This document shows, in pieces, positions 2,881-33,739 of a stretch of 64,000 nt of DNA. The position numbers and the translations under genes were made by a program. This DNA comes from an uncultured Chitinophagales bacterium (GTDB taxonomy: Bacteria > Bacteroidota > Bacteroidia > Chitinophagales > JADIYW01): positions 7,439-71,438 of the forward strand of contig CAZXRF010000004.1 of assembly GCA_964642875.1 (NCBI GenBank). The letters run 5' to 3'. The notes beneath the pieces were generated by a model, which was not told the DNA's origin, did no database searches, and saw only the letters and a program-made list of their open reading frames with translations. How positions within the stretch are numbered: the first letter of the stretch is position 1; each line of letters opens with the position of its first letter.

Positions 2881-3546
2881 ATGAAAAACGTACAAAGAAC
2901 AGGCTTTGCCCTATTTATCCTTTCTATTTTATTTTTTAGCAGTTGTAAAAAAGACAATTTCAATCTTTCTGCTGACATTAAAAACATAATACCTACCACC
3001 ATGCTTAAAGAGTTAAAAAGTAAAGGAATGGCTATCAATGAAGGTACAACCCCACCAAGTATTGAAGGTATTTATTTAGCAAGTCCTTATACGCTGAAAT
3101 CGCCATACGGCGCTGGAGATAGTTGGGTTGCAGGTAGAGTAATTGCTAATTACAAATATAAATTTTACGACCAAACCGGAGGAAACGTAAAAGTGGATTA
3201 CAAACAGCCCTCAGGATCGGATCATGGATCAGGATTGGGTTCTTTCATTTCGGGAAGCGGAAATAAATTTTCTATTTTTTCTGAATCCAATGGAAGTACA
3301 AGCAGCATTGAATACACTACTGTAAGTGTTATTTCGGGAGAGCTTACACCAACAGGAATAAAAGATTTTCAATACGGTTTTATATTTACCAAAAAAACTG
3401 GAGATGATGGGGACGTTAACTATATACCGAAAGGAAAAAGTAGAGTATGGATAGATGGAGACGCACTTGCTGACAAAGTAAGCACATTTAGAATGGGCAT
3501 CAACAGCATTAATATTTCCGACATTTCTGCTATGGGTTCAAAATAA
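2881..3546 (+). CDS. Hypothetical lipoprotein
   Basis: Signal peptide with a lipobox-like FFSSC, Gly/Ser-rich mature part, no family recognised. Followed by a terminator hairpin. Confidence 0.6.
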   Translation: MKNVQRTGFALFILSILFFSSCKKDNFNLSADIKNIIPTTMLKELKSKGMAINEGTTPPSIEGIYLASPYTLKSPYGAGDSWVAGRVIANYKYKFYDQTGGNVKVDYKQPSGSDHGSGLGSFISGSGNKFSIFSESNGSTSSIEYTTVSVISGELTPTGIKDFQYGFIFTKKTGDDGDVNYIPKGKSRVWIDGDALADKVSTFRMGINSINISDISAMGSK

Positions 3547-3574
3547 TTGAACTCTTAAAAAAATAATATTTTCA

Positions 3575-3612
3575 AGCACAAGAATTTTCAATAATATTCT
3601 TATGCTTTTTTA
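3575..3612 (+). terminator. Rho-independent terminator after the lipoprotein gene
   Basis: Arms agcacaagaat (3575..3585) and attcttatgct (3596..3606) pair with one mismatch. A T-run follows. Confidence 0.5.
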
Positions 3613-3697
3613 TTTTTATGCAAATGGGCAGAAAAGCATATCGAGATTTTTTTCATCCTCATTACCATAACTCAATTCTATCTATTATTTTTACTGC

Positions 3698-4501
3698 ATG
3701 AACGTACTAATCATTGGAGGCGGAAATATGGGCAGAAGTTTTGCCGAAAGTTTCTTAAATGCAAAAATTCTAACGCATAAACAACTAACTGTAATAGAAA
3801 AGGACCATGCGCAAATTCAAGAACTCAACCGCATGAAATTGGGGCAAATCTATAACGATTACGGCGATTTTATTGTGGATAAAGAGCTTATTATATTAGC
3901 AGTAAAACCTCAAGATGCCTATTCTGTTTATCCAAAATTAAAACCATTTCTTACAGAAAAGCACATTGTATTATCGATTATGGCTGGTATGCCTATTAAG
4001 CAAATTGAAGAACAACTTGGCATTAACAAAGTAGTGCGCTGCATGCCCAATCTGCCTTGCCAAATCGGGTTAGGCGTTACAGGGTTTATGGTCTCCGAAG
4101 CAGTCCCACAGTGCGATATTGATTTTATTCGCAAGTTATTAGAAACCACAGGCGTTTCCATTCAATTATACGATGAAGATAAGCTCAACGCTGTTACTGC
4201 AATTTCGGGCTCTGGACCTGCTTATATTTTTTATTTTATGGATGCCATGATTCAAAAAACTATGGAGTATGGATTTTCCGCTACCGAAGCATCTAAGATG
4301 GTGGAACAAACCTTTTTAGGGGCGGTAGAATTGTATAAAGTCAACAACTTATCGTGCAGAGAATGGATAAGCAAAGTAGCCTCCAAAGGAGGCACTACGG
4401 AAGCAGCCTTAAAACAATTCCAACATTCCACAGTAGAAGCCGGCATACAAAAGGGCATGGACGATGCATTGCAGCGTAGCCGAGAACTCAGCAAAGGATA
4501 A
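3698..4501 (+). CDS. proC: Pyrroline-5-carboxylate reductase
   Basis: N-terminal Rossmann motif IIGGGNMG and C-terminal SKGGTTEAAL motif. Length 267 aa. Confidence 0.85.
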   Translation: MNVLIIGGGNMGRSFAESFLNAKILTHKQLTVIEKDHAQIQELNRMKLGQIYNDYGDFIVDKELIILAVKPQDAYSVYPKLKPFLTEKHIVLSIMAGMPIKQIEEQLGINKVVRCMPNLPCQIGLGVTGFMVSEAVPQCDIDFIRKLLETTGVSIQLYDEDKLNAVTAISGSGPAYIFYFMDAMIQKTMEYGFSATEASKMVEQTFLGAVELYKVNNLSCREWISKVASKGGTTEAALKQFQHSTVEAGIQKGMDDALQRSRELSKG

Positions 4502-4584: not shown

Positions 4585-5835
4585 ATGGAAAGATTTCAAG
4601 GACTTATCGGCATTGTAGCAATATTGGGAATTGCATTTTTATTTTCCAATAACAAGAAAAAAATTAACTATCGCTTGGTAGGCAGCGGATTGTTATTACA
4701 AACTATCATTGCTGTTTTAATTTTAAAAGTAAATCCTGTTAAAAACTTCTTCCAATCCTTAGGAAAAGTAATGACACACATTGAAGCGTTTGCGCACCAA
4801 GGTGCAGCTTTTGTATATGGTGGATTACAAACGGACAACCATGCAGGAGGAAGCATACCCTATAGCGCCGATGGCGTTTTTGTATTTGGATTTAGTGTAC
4901 TTGCAACCATTATTTTAGTATGTGTGTTAGTAGCAATTTTCTATCATTTCGGCATTATGCAGCGCATTGTAGCCATTATCGCTAAAGCGATGAATTTTGT
5001 AATGCGCGTTTCTGGTGCCGAAGCTTTGAGCAATGTAGCAAGTGCTTTTGTAGGACAAGTAGAGGCGCAAGTAATGATTCGTCCATATCTTTCTACCAAG
5101 ACGATGAGGGAATTATTAGCGAGCATGTCAGGCAGCTTGGCATGTATTGCCGGCGGAATTTTGGTAGTATATGTAGGCTTTGGTGCAAAAGTAGAATACT
5201 TATTAGCGGCCAGTATTATGGCAGCACCGGGGGCGTTGGTAATCTCTAAAATTGTATTTCCAGAAACAGAAGAAAGTAAAACGTTGGGCAATGTAAAATT
5301 AGAAGTAAAAACACCATATACTAATATTATTGATGCGATTAGCCATGGTGCTAGCGACGGGATGAAAATTTCTGTAAATGTAATAGCAATGATTATCGGA
5401 TTCGTGGCATTGATAGCTATGGTAAATTATATTTTAGGAAAGATAGGTTTTTGGTCAAATCTTCCCTTTACACTTACTTTAGATTGGATTTTCGGTAAGC
5501 TGTTTTTCCCACTGGCATGGTGCATGGGTGTACCATCACAAGATGTAAATACAGTAGCGACTTTAATGGGACAAAAACTAACCATCAACGAGTTTATTGC
5601 ATTTTTAAATATGACAAAAAATGGCTTAGCACCCGTTACAGAAAAAGGCGTAATGATTGCGAGTATTGCCATTTGCGGCTTCGCCAATTTTAGCTCTGTA
5701 GGTATGCAAATTGGAGGTATTGGAGAATTAGCTCCGAGCCGCCGTGCTGACTTAGCAAAACTTGGATTGAGGGCATTGCTATGCGGAACACTTGCCTCCT
5801 ATTTGTCAGCTACTATAGCTGGAATTTTAATGTAG
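4585..5835 (+). CDS. NupC/CNT-family concentrative nucleoside transporter
   Basis: 416 aa polytopic protein. The N-terminus (RFQGLIGIVAILGIAFLFSNNKK) and overall profile are typical of NupC-family permeases. Confidence 0.8.
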   Translation: MERFQGLIGIVAILGIAFLFSNNKKKINYRLVGSGLLLQTIIAVLILKVNPVKNFFQSLGKVMTHIEAFAHQGAAFVYGGLQTDNHAGGSIPYSADGVFVFGFSVLATIILVCVLVAIFYHFGIMQRIVAIIAKAMNFVMRVSGAEALSNVASAFVGQVEAQVMIRPYLSTKTMRELLASMSGSLACIAGGILVVYVGFGAKVEYLLAASIMAAPGALVISKIVFPETEESKTLGNVKLEVKTPYTNIIDAISHGASDGMKISVNVIAMIIGFVALIAMVNYILGKIGFWSNLPFTLTLDWIFGKLFFPLAWCMGVPSQDVNTVATLMGQKLTINEFIAFLNMTKNGLAPVTEKGVMIASIAICGFANFSSVGMQIGGIGELAPSRRADLAKLGLRALLCGTLASYLSATIAGILM

Positions 5836-5960
5836 CATTAATATATTAAAAACAAAAACTCGGTTATACTTATTTTGCTTGTAGGAAACTAGATTGTAGT
5901 TTATTATAGCAGCAAAATAATATAGAATACAATAGTTAATGATGTATATTCATTGAAATT

Positions 5961-26470: not shown

Positions 26471-27421
26471 ATGATTTTGAAACTCATTAACAATATTTTG
26501 TCTGTGGGAAAGAAAACTAAAAAAGAAGAACCTAAGAAGGCAACTAGGTCTGTAGCCCAACCTACGGCTAAGAATACTGCTGCTATTAAGAATAGCAAGG
26601 TAGCCACTATTCCAAAAGTGCCTACTAAATCCAAGAACCCCATAAAACAGCAGACTACAAAGCCTATTCCAAAAAGTACACCTAAAAAAGCTGCAGCAGC
26701 TGCCGTAGCTAAGCCAATAATTAATTCACCAGCACAAAACAAAAAAACCTCACCAGCCGTGACATCTAAGACAGCAAACACTACCAAGAAGACAACTGCA
26801 CAAACTGAAACGAAAAAAGAAAAAGGTGCTCCGAAAGCATCCTCAAAACTGGAAGTTAAAGTTGAAAAGAGTACTCCCAATTCTGAAAAAGGGAAAATCG
26901 TAGCAAAGAAAGCAGCAACAACACCTATTAAAGTTGCACCGACTCCGCCTCCGGGTGGATTTAAAAAAGTAATTGTAGATTACAAAAATGTTCCTGATGA
27001 AGTATTGAAAGCTTTATCTGAAAAATATCCGCATGGATATAATAAGGCTATCATACAATTTACCAATGCAAAAAAGGAATTAGTTTCTGCTGTACCAATT
27101 GAGTTAGGAGAATTTTCTTACTTAGTGAAAGTAAGCACCCAACTTCAAAAAATGGTAGATGATTATGATGATGATGAAATATTTACCGATGATGCTACTC
27201 CTATCGAGAAAGAAATTTCTGTAGGTGCAGGTGGCGACTTTGATGATTTTGACAAGAGTGATGAAGATGACTCCCCTAAAAGAAAATCTAAAGGGAAAGT
27301 AAAAAGTGCGGACGATTTGGAATACGGATTTGATGACGACGACGATGATGATGAATATGACGACGATGATGACGATGATGATGACAATATATCAGATGAT
27401 GATGATGATGATGACGAATAA
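26471..27421 (+). CDS. Hypothetical protein with polybasic N-terminal half, small globular core and poly-Asp C-terminal tail
   Basis: Uninterrupted 316-codon ORF ending just before a strong terminator. Residues ~13-165 are K/T/A/P-rich, a ~70-aa core follows (VIVDYKNVPDEVLKALSEKYPHGYNKAIIQFTN...), and the tail is acidic. No family recognised. Confidence 0.6.
   Translation: MILKLINNILSVGKKTKKEEPKKATRSVAQPTAKNTAAIKNSKVATIPKVPTKSKNPIKQQTTKPIPKSTPKKAAAAAVAKPIINSPAQNKKTSPAVTSKTANTTKKTTAQTETKKEKGAPKASSKLEVKVEKSTPNSEKGKIVAKKAATTPIKVAPTPPPGGFKKVIVDYKNVPDEVLKALSEKYPHGYNKAIIQFTNAKKELVSAVPIELGEFSYLVKVSTQLQKMVDDYDDDEIFTDDATPIEKEISVGAGGDFDDFDKSDEDDSPKRKSKGKVKSADDLEYGFDDDDDDDEYDDDDDDDDDNISDDDDDDDE
27317..27418 (+). 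repeat. GAY (Asp codon) trinucleotide tract
   Basis: Direct reading gives runs of 7, 9 and 7 consecutive gat/gac codons. Asp makes up 23 of the last 30 residues. Confidence 0.9.
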
Positions 27422-27437
27422 TTCAATGTTACTCTAT

Positions 27438-27470
27438 AAAAAAATCGGGTTTTAGAACCCGATTTTTTTT
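27438..27470. terminator. Bidirectional terminator
   Basis: aaaaaa-atcgggtt-ttag-aacccgat-ttttttt lies between convergent genes. Confidence 0.75.
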
Positions 27471-27491
27471 ATTTCCACTAAATAATATTCT

Positions 27492-27977
27492 CTATATTAG
27501 AATGAGAAAAAGCCATTTTATTAAAAAGAAAGCCAAAACGCCTATTATTGTAAAAATAACAGCTAACACTATCACTACTGGCAATATAATTGGCCATGCA
27601 CTTCCTTGATGTTTCCCTGCTTCAAAATGTTCTATGGCTAAAACTAAATTACGTCTATTCGCTTTAAAGAAAATATCAAAAAAGCGACCAAGGAATGGAA
27701 TTACTCCTACCAATCCATCAACAGTTATATTGACAAGCATTTTGGCTACTGCTCTCCCGCTTGCACCATTCCTAATCATGGCCACCATTAAATATGCTGA
27801 TATACCGTAGTCTATCAAATCACCCAATCCGGGAATTAAACCAATGATAGGATCTAACCCAAAAGTAAATTTTGTGCCGGGAATACGGAACTGGCTATCC
27901 ATTAACCTTACTACCTTTGCAATTTGCTGCAAAGAAGCAGGGATTTCTTTTCCGTCAATTTGATTTTTTTCTGGCAT
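27492..27977 (-). CDS. DUF4112-family small membrane protein
   Basis: FGLDPIIGLIPGLGDLIDYGISAYL motif, and hydrophobic segments toward the C-terminus. Confidence 0.7.
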   Translation of the reverse strand: MPEKNQIDGKEIPASLQQIAKVVRLMDSQFRIPGTKFTFGLDPIIGLIPGLGDLIDYGISAYLMVAMIRNGASGRAVAKMLVNITVDGLVGVIPFLGRFFDIFFKANRRNLVLAIEHFEAGKHQGSAWPIILPVVIVLAVIFTIIGVLAFFLIKWLFLILI

Positions 27978-28667: not shown

Positions 28668-29717
28668 TTGAAGCGATTTTACATCATATTAGTATTCGTA
28701 TGCATTGCACTTACTTCGTATGCGCAGCTCGGAGGTAAAAACATTTATGATTTTTTACAATTTCCTACTTCTTCCCGAATGGAAGGCTTAGGCGGTGGAA
28801 TTCAAAGTATTAAAAACCTTAAAGACCCTGACTTATCTTTGGCAATTGCTAATCCATGTTTTTTAGATAGCACCTATCACAAACAATTATCTATTTCCAA
28901 TGCATTTTATACCGATAAAACTAATATTGGCAATCTCTCGTTTACCTATTATCATCCAAAAATAAAATCGACGTTAGCCTATACTATGCAATATGCATCG
29001 TATGGGAAATTTGACGGTCGCGATATTTCCGGAAATCCTACGGGAACATTCCGTGCGGCTGATTTTAATATTCAAGTAGGCATTGGAAGGCATTGGAATA
29101 AATTTTATTATGGTGCAAATTTAAAATTCATCATTTCTAATTTAGAAACTTATACTTCCTTAGGATTTGCAGGGGACCTTGCTTTAGGCTATTTTAATCC
29201 AAAAACCAATTGGGCATTTACGGCTATTGTTCGTAATGCCGGTGTAGAATTAAAGCCTTACATAAAATCGGAGGGAAGACAAAAACTACCCATTGCCTTT
29301 GATATTACATTTTCCAAGCGTTTTAAAAAATTACCGCTCACTCTTTCTATTACTGCGCATGATTTGCAAGTTTGGAAGTTGAAATATCCGCAAGAAGAAC
29401 AAACCACATTATTTGGAACGACAAAAAAAACGAGCAAGGGCACAGAAATTATAGATAATATTTTTAGGCACTTAGATTTTGGAGCAGAAATACAAGCCGG
29501 AAAACCGGTGCGCCTGCGCATGGGATACAATCATCTGCGTAGGCAAGAATTGGGCGTAGGCAAGAAGAAAGGGTTTGCCGGAATAAGCGTTGGATTTGGG
29601 GTAAACATCAAGCAATTTGCATTAGACTATTCGTATGCGCAATACCACAGAGTAGGCAGCGACCATCAGCTTACTTTCAGAATAAAAATTGATGAGTTTG
29701 GGAAAAAAGCAAAATAA
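28668..29717 (+). CDS. porQ: PorQ-like T9SS outer-membrane protein
   Basis: After the signal peptide the sequence reads QLGGKNIYDFLQFPTSSRMEGLGG, matching my recollection of the PorQ-family N-terminus. Beta-barrel-like, 349 aa. The ORF begins with TTG. Confidence 0.65.
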   Translation: MKRFYIILVFVCIALTSYAQLGGKNIYDFLQFPTSSRMEGLGGGIQSIKNLKDPDLSLAIANPCFLDSTYHKQLSISNAFYTDKTNIGNLSFTYYHPKIKSTLAYTMQYASYGKFDGRDISGNPTGTFRAADFNIQVGIGRHWNKFYYGANLKFIISNLETYTSLGFAGDLALGYFNPKTNWAFTAIVRNAGVELKPYIKSEGRQKLPIAFDITFSKRFKKLPLTLSITAHDLQVWKLKYPQEEQTTLFGTTKKTSKGTEIIDNIFRHLDFGAEIQAGKPVRLRMGYNHLRRQELGVGKKKGFAGISVGFGVNIKQFALDYSYAQYHRVGSDHQLTFRIKIDEFGKKAK

Positions 29718-29748
29718 TTGCTAGAAAAAACAATTTTAAATACAAGTT

Positions 29749-30792
29749 TTATTGCTCACACAATTGTTTATTAATGGCTTTTATCAAATCTGGCCCCGTA
29801 TAAATGAAACCAGTATAAAGCTGTACCAAACTCGCACCTGCATTTAGTTTATCTATTGCATCTTGTGCCGTCATAATACCACCAACAGCAATAATTGGAA
29901 TTTGCTGCTGTGATTTCCGGGCAATATACTGTATAATTTCTGTGGATTTTTGTGTAAGTGGTTTTCCGCTTAAACCGCCTGCACCTATAGATTTTATTGT
30001 GTTGTTCTCTGAGTTTAAATTTTCACGAGAAATAGTGGTATTCGTTGCTACGATGCCGGCAAGTTTTGTGTCAAAAATAATTTCTATGATATCGTCTAAT
30101 TGATCATTGGATAAATCTGGAGCAATTTTCAGTAAAATAGGTTTTTGTTTGGGTTGTTTCTGATTAATATCTTGTAGTTGAAATAAGATTTTTTTCAAAG
30201 GTTCTTTTTCTTGTAAAGCTCGCAAATTCGGGGTGTTTGGCGAACTTACGTTTACCACAAAATAATCTACTACATCATACAATTCCAAAAAACATTTTAT
30301 ATAATCCTCTACGGCAAGTTCATTATCTGTAACTTTATTTTTTCCAATATTTCCACCAATTATGATTTCAGATTTATGATTTATGATTTCAGATTTTAGA
30401 ATATTTTTCTTTACAACATTCATTCCTGCGTTATTAAATCCCATTCTGTTAATGATGGCTTCGTCCTGAATCAACCGAAATAAGCGTGGTTTATCGTTTC
30501 CGTCTTGTGGCAATGGGGTTACCGTTCCAATTTCTATAAATCCAAACCCCAATGCGGCAAAGGCATCTATACATGCTGCATTTTTATCTAATCCGGCGGC
30601 GAGCCCAATGGGATTTTTAAACGTTAATCCAAAAACAGTACGTTCTAATTTTTTATTTTCTACTGCATAAAAGTATTGTAAAATAGATTTTACGAATGGA
30701 ATTTTTATTAAAAAAGAAAATAGATTTAGCGTAAGATGGTGCGCAGTTTCAGCATCAAATTTAAAAAGAAAAAAACGGAGTATTTTGTACAT
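29749..30792 (-). CDS. pyrD: Dihydroorotate dehydrogenase (quinone), class 2
   Basis: N-terminal membrane-association helix pair, [17 protein letters not shown] and SSPNTPNLR motifs. 347 aa. Confidence 0.9.
30355..30396 (-). repeat. In-frame 21-nt tandem duplication inside pyrD
   Basis: Units 30355..30375 and 30376..30396 are identical at 18 of 21 positions. They encode [14 protein letters not shown] just before the GGNIGKNK motif. Confidence 0.85.
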
Positions 30793-30793
30793 A
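30631..30793 (-). repeat. Direct repeat copy A (5-prime end of intact pyrD)
   Basis: Aligns by hand to 31692..31852 with 4 substitutions and two 1-nt gaps. Confidence 0.9.
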
Positions 30794-30811
30794 AATTACG
30801 GTAAAAATATT

Positions 30812-31264
30812 TTATAATAAACCAATTACGTTTATCTCATTGGGTGAATATTTAATAAAGTCTTTGGTATTATGTGTAAGTATATTCTTTATATCATATT
30901 GTTTCATTGTGGCAACGAAGTTACAATCATGAACATTTTTACCTGTTATATTATGCTTTTTAACTAAATCTAAAAGAATTTCACTTGTAGATTTAATTTC
31001 ATCTGCAATATAAAATTGATTGCTAAATTTTTCAACTGAGATTATAATATCATCTATTTTAAAATCTGGTTCCGCAAATAATATTTTTGAAATTACAGAA
31101 AGATATTCTCTAATAACTTGTCTGCTAATCCATATCTCATAATTATTAGTAGCAAATTCTAAAATTTTTTCTCTTGCTATATGTTGGAAATCAGAATTTG
31201 TCAAACTTGAATACACTAAAATATTGGTGTCTAAAAACAGTTTTTTATCTTCCATTATCACCAT
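30812..31264 (-). CDS. PIN-domain ribonuclease, VapC-like toxin
   Basis: LFLDTNILVYS N-terminal acidic motif, with later conserved acidic positions (IREY, VHDCN, HNTKDF). 150 aa. A small ORF overlaps its start. Confidence 0.8.
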   Translation of the reverse strand: MVIMEDKKLFLDTNILVYSSLTNSDFQHIAREKILEFATNNYEIWISRQVIREYLSVISKILFAEPDFKIDDIIISVEKFSNQFYIADEIKSTSEILLDLVKKHNITGKNVHDCNFVATMKQYDIKNILTHNTKDFIKYSPNEINVIGLL

Positions 31265-31463
31265 ATATTTCAGTTCTGCTAAAATTTTGTGAAGTATTTA
31301 CTTCAGTATTAAAATTTGGAAACCAAATTTGTTTAGTAGATTTTTTAGGATTATCATCAACTACCAATAATAATTGATATTCACCTTCAGGTAGTTTTCC
31401 TAAATCAAAACTAACTACGGCATTCGTCTTGCTTAGTGATACATTTTTGTTTATTGTTAGCAT
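31245..31463 (-). CDS. Small ORF upstream of the PIN gene; candidate antitoxin of unrecognised type
   Basis: 72 codons that overlap the PIN ORF by 20 nt in a different frame, the classic toxin-antitoxin layout. I could not recognise an RHH, AbrB, Phd or HTH motif. Confidence 0.4.
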   Translation of the reverse strand: MLTINKNVSLSKTNAVVSFDLGKLPEGEYQLLLVVDDNPKKSTKQIWFPNFNTEVNTSQNFSRTEIYGDNGR

Positions 31464-31479
31464 AAAATAAAGATTCGCT

Positions 31480-31525
31480 ATGTAAAGTTACAAAATATTA
31501 CATAAAATTACCGCGTAAATTTACG
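31480..31525 (-). promoter_or_regulatory. Two palindromes upstream of the small ORF (candidate operator sites)
   Basis: ATGTAA-N12-TTACAT at 31480..31503 and a perfect 12-bp palindrome CGTAAATTTACG at 31514..31525, lying 17-62 nt upstream of the ATG at 31463. Confidence 0.35.
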
Positions 31526-31691
31526 AGGCAATATCTATTTCTTTTAAGATAAATCTAGTACAGAATACCAAACTTTAAAAAACCACTACAGCTACATCAT
31601 CAATTTGTTGCCCTGGGAAATAGGTCAATCTGCCGCCTAAATTCAAAGGCACGCCTAAGCCCTGACTAACTTTAAATTCTACTCCTAATGC

Positions 31692-31852
31692 AAAAACTGT
31701 ACGTTCTAATTTTTTATTTTCTACTGCATAAAAGTATTGTAAAATAGATTTTACGAATGGGCTTTTTATTAAAAAAGAAAATAGGTTTAGCGTAAGATGG
31801 TGCGCAGTTTCACATCAAATTTAAAAAGAAAAAACGGAGTATTTTGTACATA
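31692..31852 (-). pseudogene. Frameshifted remnant of the pyrD 5-prime end (direct repeat copy B)
   Basis: Reads [13 protein letters not shown] because of a 1-nt deletion, and a second 1-nt deletion lies further in. It is otherwise near-identical to codons 1-54 of the intact pyrD. Confidence 0.85.
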
Positions 31853-31855
31853 CTA

Positions 31856-31863
31856 CAAATTTA
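31856..31863 (-). promoter_or_regulatory. -7 promoter box in front of the pyrD remnant (probable ancestral pyrD promoter)
   Basis: TAAATTTG on the minus strand, 4 nt upstream of the remnant ATG (31851..31849). Confidence 0.4.
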
Positions 31864-31938
31864 CAATTTAAGCTGTATGATTTAAGGGTTACAAAGTAAA
31901 TATTGTTTTAAAATCTAAAAGAATTAACTTGCAATCTC

Positions 31939-31946
31939 TAATTTTG
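31939..31946 (+). promoter_or_regulatory. -7 promoter box for rarA (near-leaderless)
   Basis: TAATTTTG ends 4 nt before the ATG at 31951. Confidence 0.3.
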
Positions 31947-31950
31947 CTAT

Positions 31951-33207
31951 ATGCAACCACCACTTGCCGAGCGAATGCGTCCAAAATCATTAGATCAAAT
32001 TATTGGTCAGCAACATATTTTGGGAAAAGGCAAACCACTAAGAAATCTACTTGAAAAACAAAAATTACACTCTCTGGTGTTTTGGGGGCCTCCGGGTGTT
32101 GGAAAAACAACTTTAGCAAGAGTATTAGCCAGTCATGCCCATTTACCTATTGAACAATTGAGTGCCATTTCTGCTGGGGTAAAAGAGATTAGAGCAGTAA
32201 TTGAAAATGCAAAACAAGTAGGTCAAACAGTTTTATTTATCGATGAAATACATCGCTTCAATAAATCTCAACAAGATGCATTATTAGGTGCTGTAGAAAA
32301 TGGTACTATTATATTAATTGGTGCTACTACAGAAAATCCTTCGTTTGAGGTTAATGCTGCACTTTTATCGCGCTGCCAAGTGTATGTTTTAAAATCTTTA
32401 GAGGCAGAAGATTTAAAACTAATTTTAGACTTGACTTTACTAGAAGATGAGATTTTAAAAAAAGAAAATATTACCATAAAAGAATATGATGCGCTCTTTT
32501 ATTTTTCTGGTGGCGATGCCAGAAAATTATTAAATGTATTAGAATTAGTTTGCGAAAATTTGAAAGAAGATAAAACTATCACCAACGTTTTTGTAGAAGA
32601 AATTATACAAACCTATATTGCTCGTTATGATAAAGACGGCGAGCAGCATTATGATATCATTTCTGCATTTATAAAATCGATACGTGGCAGCGACCCAAAC
32701 GCCGCAGTTTATTGGATGGCTCGCATGATACATGCCGGTGAAGATCCGAAATTTATTGCACGACGTTTATTAATTTTATCTTCAGAAGATATTGGAAATG
32801 CTAATCCAAATGCGTTGTTATTAGCAAATGCATGTTTCCAAGCGGTAACTACAATTGGCTATCCGGAATGTAGAATTATTTTAGCGCAATGCGTTACTTA
32901 CCTTGCATCTTCACCCAAAAGCAATGCTAGTTATTTGGCAATTGATAGTGCAATTGCTTTTGCAGAAAAAACTTCGAACTTATCGGTTCCATTGCATTTA
33001 CGCAATGCCCCTACTAAATTAATGAAAAATTTAAACTACGGAAAAGAGTATCAATATGCGCATAACCATGAAAATAATTTTGTGGACTTAGAATTTCTAC
33101 CACAGGAAATGAGTGGCACAAAATTTTATGAACCCGGAAATAATGTACGCGAAAATGAATTGCGAAAATTTCTGAAAGAAAGATGGAAAGAAAAGTATAG
33201 TTACTGA
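31951..33207 (+). CDS. rarA: Replication-associated recombination protein A (AAA+ ATPase MgsA/RarA)
   Basis: LAERMRPKSLDQIIGQQHILG, Walker A GPPGVGKTT, Walker B FIDEIHRFNK, C-terminal MgsA domain. Confidence 0.9.
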   Translation: MQPPLAERMRPKSLDQIIGQQHILGKGKPLRNLLEKQKLHSLVFWGPPGVGKTTLARVLASHAHLPIEQLSAISAGVKEIRAVIENAKQVGQTVLFIDEIHRFNKSQQDALLGAVENGTIILIGATTENPSFEVNAALLSRCQVYVLKSLEAEDLKLILDLTLLEDEILKKENITIKEYDALFYFSGGDARKLLNVLELVCENLKEDKTITNVFVEEIIQTYIARYDKDGEQHYDIISAFIKSIRGSDPNAAVYWMARMIHAGEDPKFIARRLLILSSEDIGNANPNALLLANACFQAVTTIGYPECRIILAQCVTYLASSPKSNASYLAIDSAIAFAEKTSNLSVPLHLRNAPTKLMKNLNYGKEYQYAHNHENNFVDLEFLPQEMSGTKFYEPGNNVRENELRKFLKERWKEKYSY

Positions 33208-33214
33208 TTTTTAA

Positions 33215-33240
33215 ACTACTAAGATACCAAGAACACTAAA
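33215..33240 (+). repeat. CACTAAG-type repeat, copy A (direct)
   Basis: actactaagataccaagaacactaaa. It is similar to copy B at about 22 of 27 aligned positions. Confidence 0.7.
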
Positions 33241-33285
33241 TTAATAATGACAAAATTCAATTTTAAAAAACCATAAAGAATAACA

Positions 33286-33314
33286 ACCACTAAGGCACTA
33301 AGAACACTTAAAGA
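33286..33314 (+). repeat. CACTAAG-type repeat, copy B (direct), just upstream of the GxxExxY gene
   Basis: accactaaggcactaagaacacttaaaga. Confidence 0.8.
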
Positions 33315-33331
33315 TTAAATGATTTAAACTG

Positions 33332-33739
33332 ATGATTACACAAACCTATATAAATAATATTGCTTACAAGATTGTTGGTTGTGCAATAGAAGTTCACAAA
33401 GAACTAGGTCCAGGTTTATTAGAATCTGTATACCAAAAGTGTTTTGTAAAAGAATTGGAATTAAAAGGATTTAAAATTAATCAACAAATAAAAATACCTA
33501 TTTCTTATAAAGGAGAAAGTTTAGATTGTGATTTGCGATTAGATGTTTTAGTAGAAGATTTAATAATTGTAGAACTAAAATCTGTTGAAACAATGCTTCC
33601 ATTATTTAAAGCTCAACTTCTAACCTATATGAAACTATTAGAAAAACCTAAAGGATTATTAATTAACTTTAACACAGAAAATATTACAAAAGATTTAGTG
33701 CCAATGGTAAATGAATATTTTTCTAATTTACCAAAATAA
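33332..33739 (+). CDS. GxxExxY-family protein (PD-(D/E)XK-like)
   Basis: 135 aa with GLLESVY (GxxExxY) near the N-terminus and the VLVEDLIIVELK motif typical of this small family. Confidence 0.8.
   Translation: MITQTYINNIAYKIVGCAIEVHKELGPGLLESVYQKCFVKELELKGFKINQQIKIPISYKGESLDCDLRLDVLVEDLIIVELKSVETMLPLFKAQLLTYMKLLEKPKGLLINFNTENITKDLVPMVNEYFSNLPK

Follow-up and report, generated by a model that had tools for sequence, protein, structure and literature searches.

The 64,000-nt window analysed here, a stretch of contig CAZXRF010000004.1 from an uncultured Chitinophagales bacterium to which all coordinates refer, carries the pyrimidine biosynthesis gene pyrD next to a PIN-domain toxin cassette that is bracketed by a direct duplication of the pyrD 5' end. 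The live pyrD gene (29749..30792, minus strand) codes for a class 2 dihydroorotate dehydrogenase of 347 amino acids, assigned from the list of open reading frames (ORFs) and a Pfam DHO_dh match (E 1.4e-88). The protein is 97.7% identical to its orthologue in L081 (L-numbers designate the comparison loci fetched for this work), with a ratio of non-synonymous to synonymous substitutions (dN/dS) of 0.10. Codons 1-56 of pyrD and one upstream base form the proximal copy of the repeat (30625..30793, minus strand). Further upstream on the same strand follow a PIN-domain (VapC-like) toxin gene (30812..31264), a 72-codon partner gene (31245..31463), a remnant of the 3' end of another gene, X (31555..31691), and a distal, dead copy of pyrD codons 1-54 (31692..31851). 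A divergent intergenic region of 99 nt (31852..31950), which is of the cassette-free type described below and identical in the independent contig L123, separates the dead copy from rarA/mgsA (31951..33207, plus strand). The latter codes for 418 amino acids (Pfam MgsA_C, E 4e-70) and is the left anchor of what we describe as a hot spot.

MAFFT alignment, a repeat search and a blast of the window against itself agree on the limits of both repeat copies, 30625-30793 and 31686-31852 (169 and 167 nt). The copies are 95.9% identical when gaps are counted (blastn E 2.7e-71), have 898 nt between them and recur with a period of 1,061 nt, which equals the distance from the X tail to pyrD. This is the sole significant repeat within the 64 kb, and blastn and tblastn searches of the rest of the window detected neither the insert nor gene X a second time. 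The original prediction, made from the DNA letters alone, had proposed a cassette bracketed by a duplicated pyrD 5' end with a frameshifted distal copy; the three methods find the same duplication, and pairwise alignment of 30631-30793 with 31692-31852 returns exactly the 4 substitutions and two 1-nt deletions that had been counted by hand. Homology reaches 6 nt past the limit it had set (GGATTA versus GCATTA), into the junction with X. The ORF list and coordinates also bear out its 20-nt overlap between the PIN gene and the 72-codon ORF, its 19-nt gap from the PIN stop codon to the pyrD ATG and its perfect box TAAATTTG 4 nt before the dead copy.

An assembly artefact, in which the second pyrD 5' copy stems from misjoined reads, draws on the many Logan contigs of ~960 nt that end in the repeat and on L123, which goes no further than the beginning of the distal copy; this 2-kb contig was the only match in a look-up of the window's rarA. 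Six Logan contigs (L104-L109, about 960-1090 nt) span the cassette only and have their ends inside the two repeats, the assembly graphs breaking in several independent samples. Against the artefact, more than ten independent assemblies (NCBI, ENA, JGI) hold both copies in one contig with copy-specific single-nucleotide polymorphisms and the same junction, and the distal copy has decayed in a strain-specific manner. Misassembly at the repeats, which the original prediction had listed among the ways in which it could fail, was rejected on these independent assemblies and its probability is practically negligible.

The distal copy occupies the position of pyrD in cassette-free genomes, 99 nt from rarA and behind a conserved TAnnTTTG-N3/4-ATG. 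In the alignment its first deletion shortens a run of seven A to six at 31829-31834 and its second lies between 31812 and 31813. The copy is part of an intact ORF of 92 amino acids in L081/L102, and in L082/L100 it was broken independently by an ATG>ATT change and a 1-nt deletion. It is a decaying pseudogene with three independent disruptions across different strains.

The -7 box TAAATTTG (31856-31863, minus strand) is found 4 nt before the dead ATG (31851-31849), a geometry of the leaderless type, and is mutated to TGAATTTG in the L081 group. On the opposite side of the intergenic region the rarA box TAATTTTG (31939-31946, plus strand) has the same geometry, TAATTTTG-CTAT-ATG (31939-31953). 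The sigma-A box of Flavobacterium psychrophilum is located at -12 to -5 (PMC9723704), so that a box followed by four nucleotides and ATG would make the A of the ATG the first transcribed base; this arrangement at the old pyrD start implies a putative leaderless mRNA. The form TGTAnATTTG-N3/4-ATG precedes pyrD in L001, L004, L005 and L006 and is also present before the dead copy of the window. The region upstream of the distal copy is very probably the ancestral pyrD promoter, and the proposal of the original prediction that this promoter was stranded upstream matches the pyrD-rarA junction of the relatives in both the width of the gap, 99 nt in the window, and the conserved box. Besides rarA, two other long ORFs of the window (60697 and 61359, both minus strand) have TAnnTTTG followed after 4-5 nt by a start codon.

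The stretch of 160 nt that continues the frame of the dead copy had been proposed as a possible fragment of a beta-barrel gene, and it is the 3' end of X, a gene immediately upstream of the partner gene in L095. The L095 gene codes for 279 amino acids; its product resembles a signal peptide at the N-terminus and matches NF047433 with a score near the cut-off. The remnant in the window, delimited by tblastn and codon alignment, covers about codons 234-279 (31555..31691, minus strand) and its frame is disrupted near its own stop. Residues 234-265 of L095 X match 31694-31599 of the window with 66% identity (tblastn E 4e-9), residues 234-272 are matched in L081, and the L095 C-terminus ...SNFGLGVEFKVNKALGVSLNIGGRLTYIPAHHVDFIGGSGFFKFGIVY aligns with the window tail ALGVEFKVSQGLGVPLNLGGRLTYFPGQQIDDV... 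and with the L081 tail. Past the dead pyrD copy the remnant frame reads ALGVEFKVSQGLGVPLNLGGRLTYFPGQQIDDVAVVVF followed by a stop, the true X C-terminus being frame-shifted away in both haplotypes (window and L081). Other pieces of X are preserved elsewhere, residues 41-146 in L040 and residues 118-172 in L089/L111, where they lie between a helix-turn-helix (HTH) gene and the partner. Since different lineages hold different pieces of X, the order X-partner-PIN-pyrD would be the older cassette-bearing arrangement.

Fusion of pyrD codons 53-56 to X took place at GTTTTTGCATTA (31680..31691, minus strand), where codon alignment places a Phe-Gly-Leu encoded by both parents. PyrD reads ..TVFGLTFK.. 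(GTTTTTGGATTA) at this point and X reads ..SNFGLGVEFK.. (AATTTCGGTTTA in L095). The hybrid DNA GTTTTTGCATTA equals pyrD at 11/12 positions and overlaps the Phe-Gly-Leu codons of X. A junction inside such a short shared stretch is a putative signature of illegitimate, microhomology-guided joining, and its identity in all L081-type contigs argues that it formed once.

The chimeric ORF of 92 amino acids, which links the membrane-anchor region of pyrD to the X C-terminus, might be a new gene that functions and is driven by the old promoter. Most L081-type contigs have it intact, the differences in its tail are biased to third codon positions (8/10, P 0.003) and the window and L081 differ by only 3% in its pyrD-derived part. 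However, the ORF was disrupted independently by the two frameshifts of the window and by the ATG>ATT change and 1-nt deletion of L082/L100, its promoter box is mutated in L081, and the true X C-terminus is out of frame in both haplotypes, while the low divergence equals that of the neighbouring cassette (dS, synonymous divergence, of 0.02-0.04). A functional chimeric gene was rejected on these disruptions and is highly unlikely.

Between the chimeric remnant and the cassette promoter box lies the terminator-like hairpin of X (31508..31531, minus strand). Its predicted folding energy is -16.4 kcal/mol in L105 and -14.3 in L081, and it is weakened to -9.9 in the window. The surrounding X-tail and leader patch (31500-31685) is 83-89% identical to L081 with flanks that are much closer, the X tail itself being 83% identical. 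An X-tail haplotype identical to that of the window recurs in L105 and L106.

Relatives of the window were retrieved by a scan of species-representative genomes with PyrD and belong to an uncultured Chitinophagales clade, throughout which rarA and pyrD are divergent neighbours. The cassette-free loci L002-L006 represent other species-level lineages with 70-78% nucleotide identity; in all of them, including the most distant L006, the rarA and pyrD start codons are 76-103 nt apart and pyrD has a single 5' end. A second type of locus (L089, L111, L115, L116 and L095) has PIN homologues that are 63-95% identical and lie 19-20 nt upstream of pyrD. The partner precedes PIN in these loci wherever the contig reaches that far (L089, L095, L111, L116), and a pyrD duplication is found in none of the five. 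The sister lineages L089, with the islet, and L004, without it, are 87.5-89.8% identical in pyrD and rarA, which shows that the two putative allele types coexist at shallow depth. Conservation of the order partner-PIN-19/20 nt-pyrD down to 63% PIN identity without duplication contradicts the idea, carried by the original prediction, that the cassette arrived de novo. What appears to be new in the lineage of the window is the graft of a cassette-free left flank onto a conserved partner-PIN-pyrD block.

It is likely, with a probability that we put at roughly 0.75, that the locus is a recombination scar between cassette-free and cassette-bearing alleles at a rarA-pyrD hot spot of cassette swapping. 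The cassette-free parent (type A) would have had rarA and pyrD 76-103 nt apart and a TAnnTTTG box 3-4 nt before each ATG. The cassette-bearing parent (type B) would have carried, in place of the pyrD promoter, an islet (HTH, Y, X, partner and PIN) with its end 19-20 nt before the pyrD ATG. The window and the L081-type strains would descend from a common ancestor in which these parents became joined. Type A would have contributed the left part, composed of rarA, the intergenic region and pyrD codons 1-54, fused within the Phe-Gly-Leu-coding microhomology to X codon ~234 of type B. The right part, with the X tail, X terminator, cassette promoter, partner, PIN and pyrD, would derive from type B. 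One homologous exchange, in pyrD or rarA, and one illegitimate joint would be enough, a dedicated recombinase being unnecessary. Three routes could lead to an equal product: homology-facilitated illegitimate recombination (HFIR), a 1.06-kb circle that closed at the microhomology and entered by Campbell integration, or a tandem duplication with allelic replacement as a later step. After the event the old leaderless promoter would drive only the chimeric pyrD'::X' remnant. The pyrD 5' copies share 96-98% identity with each other and no more than 85% with the pyrD 5' end of any other lineage; being lineage-specific and near-identical, they suggest that both parents came from the same or very close populations. 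The original prediction had left the arrival of the cassette unexplained, and a route can now be proposed in the form of a two-allele hybrid joined at the Phe-Gly-Leu microhomology, the cassette itself not having come de novo.

Part of this evidence would also suit an origin in situ, in which unequal crossing-over at the Phe-Gly-Leu microhomology created a 1,061-bp tandem duplication whose upstream copy and islet were later removed or replaced by a cassette-free flank. The copies are near-identical and lineage-specific, the period of the repeat equals the distance from the X tail to pyrD, the microhomology is present, and the locus has evidently undergone frequent allelic replacement through rarA and pyrD. 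Such a history requires two rare events, though, the second of which must make the cassette-free intergenic region end precisely at ATG-1 of the first pyrD fragment, and its two-cassette intermediate was not seen in about 40 related contigs. We regard the origin in situ as unlikely.

Long direct repeats across a gene end are typical of integrase-mediated islands, and with 24-27% GC the insert falls below the window's 34%. These features could point to a site-specific integrative element with an att site overlapping the pyrD 5' end, which would have supplied a replacement pyrD start and later lost its integrase. However, no integrase, recombinase or transposase is present among the genes called within 5 kb on either side in more than ten contigs, as the original prediction had noted for integrases and transposases, and the window has no tRNA gene. 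At its left end the insert carries a piece of the gene that natively neighbours the cassette at this same locus, the cassette adjoins pyrD without repeats in other lineages, the junction lies in coding microhomology, and a mirror case in L001 (see below) duplicates another sequence, rarA. An integrase island was considered largely refuted as no recombinase gene is found inside or beside the repeats, and an integrative element of this kind is extremely unlikely. Insertion of a transposon or insertion sequence was also discarded, with no terminal inverted repeats found at the insert borders, a duplication of 163-169 nt and no transposase. A search of Rfam with 29500-33400 gave no match, and an exact-protein look-up with the PyrD of the window returned no record.

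Several observations weigh against the two-allele origin of the locus or against the promoter assignments attached to it. A metagenome scan with a gapped pattern gave 0 matches to a conspecific cassette-free allele, and a metagenome scan with a 23-mer of the cassette promoter recovered only another hybrid, L110, with no intact-X parent or excision product. The parent alleles are modelled on lineages that are 76-84% identical. L095 X, standing in for the donor X allele, matches 6/9 junction positions only, and the microhomology is delimited only approximately. The two frameshifts of the distal copy are present in the assembly of this window only and one of them is in a homopolymer. TAnnTTTG has 117 matches in the window against 109 expected; the bare box is not significant and was therefore judged by comparison with relatives. 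The third-position bias of the X tail between the window and L081 (8/10 substitutions) is not expected of a simple pseudogene history and needs an extra conversion event, the X-tail patch suggesting a later conversion from an allele with an intact X. The cassette box of the window is only a 5/6 match, a 5/6 near-box TATTTTTA is present in the PIN-pyrD spacer 9 nt before the live ATG, and the statements on transcription are drawn from motif geometry alone.

The spacer between the PIN stop codon and the live pyrD ATG (AATATTTTTACCGTAATTT, 30793..30811, minus strand) has 19 nt and no perfect -7 box. Its length is 19-20 nt in L081, L089, L095, L111, L115 and L116, and in none of the cassette-bearing loci do the 600 nt upstream of live pyrD contain a perfect TAnnTTTG. 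The original prediction that live pyrD has no box of its own holds for a perfect box, and the near-box TATTTTTA qualifies it by leaving room for a weak pyrD promoter. As there is no perfect box and a spacer of 19-20 nt is too short for a terminator, pyrD would share its transcript with the cassette, probably as the third cistron read from the cassette promoter. The gene would then have changed from a leaderless monocistron to the third cistron of an operon and would fall under any autoregulation by the toxin-antitoxin pair. A scan for sigma-70 promoters and terminators was set aside, the consensus being wrong for Bacteroidota; it called no terminator, and its promoter-like sites were about as frequent as expected by chance.

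Both frameshifts of the distal copy are in its first 42 nt, and recombination anywhere in the other ~120 nt would therefore leave a frameshifted gene as the sole pyrD. The repeats had been viewed as a route to precise loss of the cassette by recombination, an expectation that this position of the frameshifts would correct; viable precise loss appears unlikely in this strain and the cassette may be effectively locked in.

The PIN gene, with a GC content of 24%, codes for a protein of 150 amino acids that matches Pfam PIN (PF01850) with E 1.2e-9 and 39.3 bits against a cut-off of 23.6 bits. Its score against NCBIfam TIGR00028 is 28.7 bits, under the VapC cut-off of 73.6 bits. A profile search found a weak match to VapC43 (PDB 7vwo, E 0.0013), and the single sequence had no match in the PDB. 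The acidic active-site residues D12, E53, D113 and D135 are invariant in an alignment of 23 sequences. The allele of the window shows I116F at an almost invariant site near the catalytic D113, recurs with 100% identity in an independent run (L104, SRR24210338) and has a dN/dS of 0.57, on small counts, relative to L081. Homologues in plasmid collections were limited to VapC genes of cyanobacterial plasmids with 27-31% identity, and phages gave none.

The 72-codon partner, a putative antitoxin of an uncharacterised family listed among the ORFs, overlaps PIN by 20 nt. No domain was recognised in it by Pfam, NCBIfam, PADLOC or a PDB profile search, and one of the 7 homologues found has a weak DUF8441 tag. 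Its AlphaFold model has a predicted local distance difference test score (pLDDT) of 69 and two strands only, the other four models scoring 42-46. The pair with its 20-nt overlap is conserved in L089, L095 and L116, as well as in the unrelated neighbourhood of L096, a context in which the pair recurs in L096-L099. Inheritance of the partner together with PIN even in the unrelated neighbourhood of L096 supports their assignment as a putative toxin-antitoxin pair. The candidate -7 box of the cassette, TAACTTTA (31483..31490, minus strand), is 19 nt before the partner ATG within a small palindrome. TA(A/T)CTTT(A/G) is found 19-20 nt before the partner ATG in 6/6 lineages (window, L081, L089, L095, L116 and L096), and in L096 it is the perfect TATCTTTG.

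Divergence between the window and the L081 group is uneven along the locus. Overall they are about 96-97% identical with a dS of about 0.10, and pyrD, PorQ and KDO8P synthase have dS values of 0.10-0.12. The dS drops to 0.02-0.04 in the cassette (partner and PIN) and rises to 0.42 in rarA, whose 5' patch at 31996-32145 (150 nt) is only 79% identical to L081. This suggests that segments of rarA were imported from a more distant lineage. The segment 33196-33754, which includes a PDDEXK_3 gene (33332-33739), is 61-71% identical between flanks of 92-98%, and the PD-(D/E)XK nuclease gene beside rarA looks like a case of allelic replacement. A further variable segment with indels, 67-75% identical to L081, is found at 26634-27650, beyond the PorQ gene (28668-29717). 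Between the window and L089, the promoter-partner-PIN block has a proportion of synonymous differences (pS) of 0.28-0.45 versus 0.66 in the flanking core genes, with a similarity that stops sharply at the borders. It could reflect exchange at the level of the cassette, or only composition-limited saturation.

Other loci have their own arrangements at the same place. In L001 an 86-nt direct repeat (4923-5008 and 5832-5916, 95% identical) of the rarA 5' end and 16 upstream bases brackets a different two-gene cassette, co-oriented with rarA and coding for proteins of 175 and 61 amino acids without family matches; a rarA fragment remains on the old intergenic region next to pyrD. L001 is apparently an independent mirror case of the structure in the window. 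The same locus has a perfect 117-nt direct repeat at the rarA 3' end (3500-3616 and 3727-3843), where other genomes have the PDDEXK_3 gene; this repeat may be either a further duplication scar or an artefact of assembly. In L040 (4940-6000) the first 58 nt of a cassette-free intergenic region are fused to X codon ~41-45, and an unrelated pair, coding for 75 amino acids and a PIN_3 protein (TIGR00305), ends 13 nt before pyrD. The L001 and L040 cassettes were not found in other fetched loci.

In L096 (4799-5474) a DUF1573 gene has a homologue of the cassette (73 and 153 amino acids) 11 nt upstream. The orthologous gene of L120 has an unrelated pair coding for 80 amino acids and a PIN protein of 131 amino acids 16 nt upstream (3365-4001), and in L117 (3530-4000) the site has no cassette. 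The DUF1573 site is a candidate second hot spot, in another Bacteroidota lineage. A tentative and rather doubtful generalisation is that small toxin-antitoxin cassettes repeatedly settle directly upstream of core genes in this clade, co-oriented with them, and replace their promoters; the core gene would become the last cistron and loss of the cassette would be counter-selected independently of toxin activity. Examples of core genes in such positions are pyrD (window, L089, L095 and L116, and the unrelated PIN_3 pair of L040), rarA (L001) and the DUF1573 gene (L096, L120). If this were so, the duplications would be footprints of fragments, made of a cassette plus the start of its target gene, that integrate by homology, and the insertion of addiction modules with long target duplication, so far unexplained, would have a general mechanism.

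The structure in the window is an event of a known kind, not a system of a new class. A description of insertion with long target duplication was reportedly given by Nobusato et al. in 2000 (Gene 259:99). These insertions have repeats of more than 30 bp, inserts of less than 20 kb, a single-copy empty site and no mobility genes (Furuta, Abe and Kobayashi 2010, PMC2853133). Their duplications often span a start or stop codon while the target gene stays intact, the inserts are restriction-modification systems and the mechanism was left open (PMC2853133). The window has repeats of 169/167 nt, an 898-nt insert and no mobility gene, and the site is single-copy in L002-L006. Common to both are a small addiction-type pair, repeats far above the size of transposon duplications and a repeat that spans the translation start. 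The differences are that a PIN toxin-antitoxin pair replaces the restriction-modification genes, that the promoter of an essential gene is displaced, and that the insert carries a fragment of X and its cassette is found beside the same target in relatives. The X fragment and the cassette beside pyrD in relatives point to co-transfer of cassette and target rather than to a staggered cut. The locus thus offers a concrete explanation for a long target duplication, one copy of which would come with the cassette while the other was resident: the insert retains a piece of its native neighbour, which argues that the duplication arose as cassette and target sequence travelled together. It adds a Bacteroidota toxin-antitoxin example whose insert keeps such a piece, as well as a clade-wide fusion of a cassette to an essential gene.

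Homology-facilitated illegitimate recombination was reportedly characterised by de Vries and Wackernagel and by Prudhomme et al., both in 2002. It has been proposed for displaced toxin/immunity modules in type VI secretion system arrays of V. cholerae and for orphan modules of Rhs and contact-dependent inhibition (CDI) systems (PMC5361080). On the proposed reading the locus in the window would share with them one homologous anchor in a conserved gene, one illegitimate joint and a displaced fragment left as a direct repeat. Their anchors are in toxin or secretion genes and the displaced pieces are toxin tips or immunity genes, whereas here the anchor would be the 5' end of a housekeeping gene, and its promoter and first 54 codons would have been displaced. 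Natural transformation is, to our knowledge, not known for the host organism. The locus would provide a well-resolved natural example of a selfish two-gene cassette moved without a recombinase of its own, in which the inferred parent allele types, the junction and the mirror case can all be read from sequence at one hot spot.

The cassette resembles type II VapBC systems in its PIN toxin with four acidic residues, the overlapping small partner upstream, the conservation of the pair across unrelated neighbourhoods and the palindrome at the predicted promoter. It departs from them in the score of the toxin, under the NCBIfam VapC cut-off, and in a partner without a recognisable antitoxin DNA-binding domain. 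It departs from them also in having, clade-wide, an essential biosynthetic gene 19 nt downstream as apparent third cistron. A housekeeping function in pyrimidine biosynthesis seems in this way to have become tied to the cassette, which would be hard to lose after decay of the spare pyrD copy.

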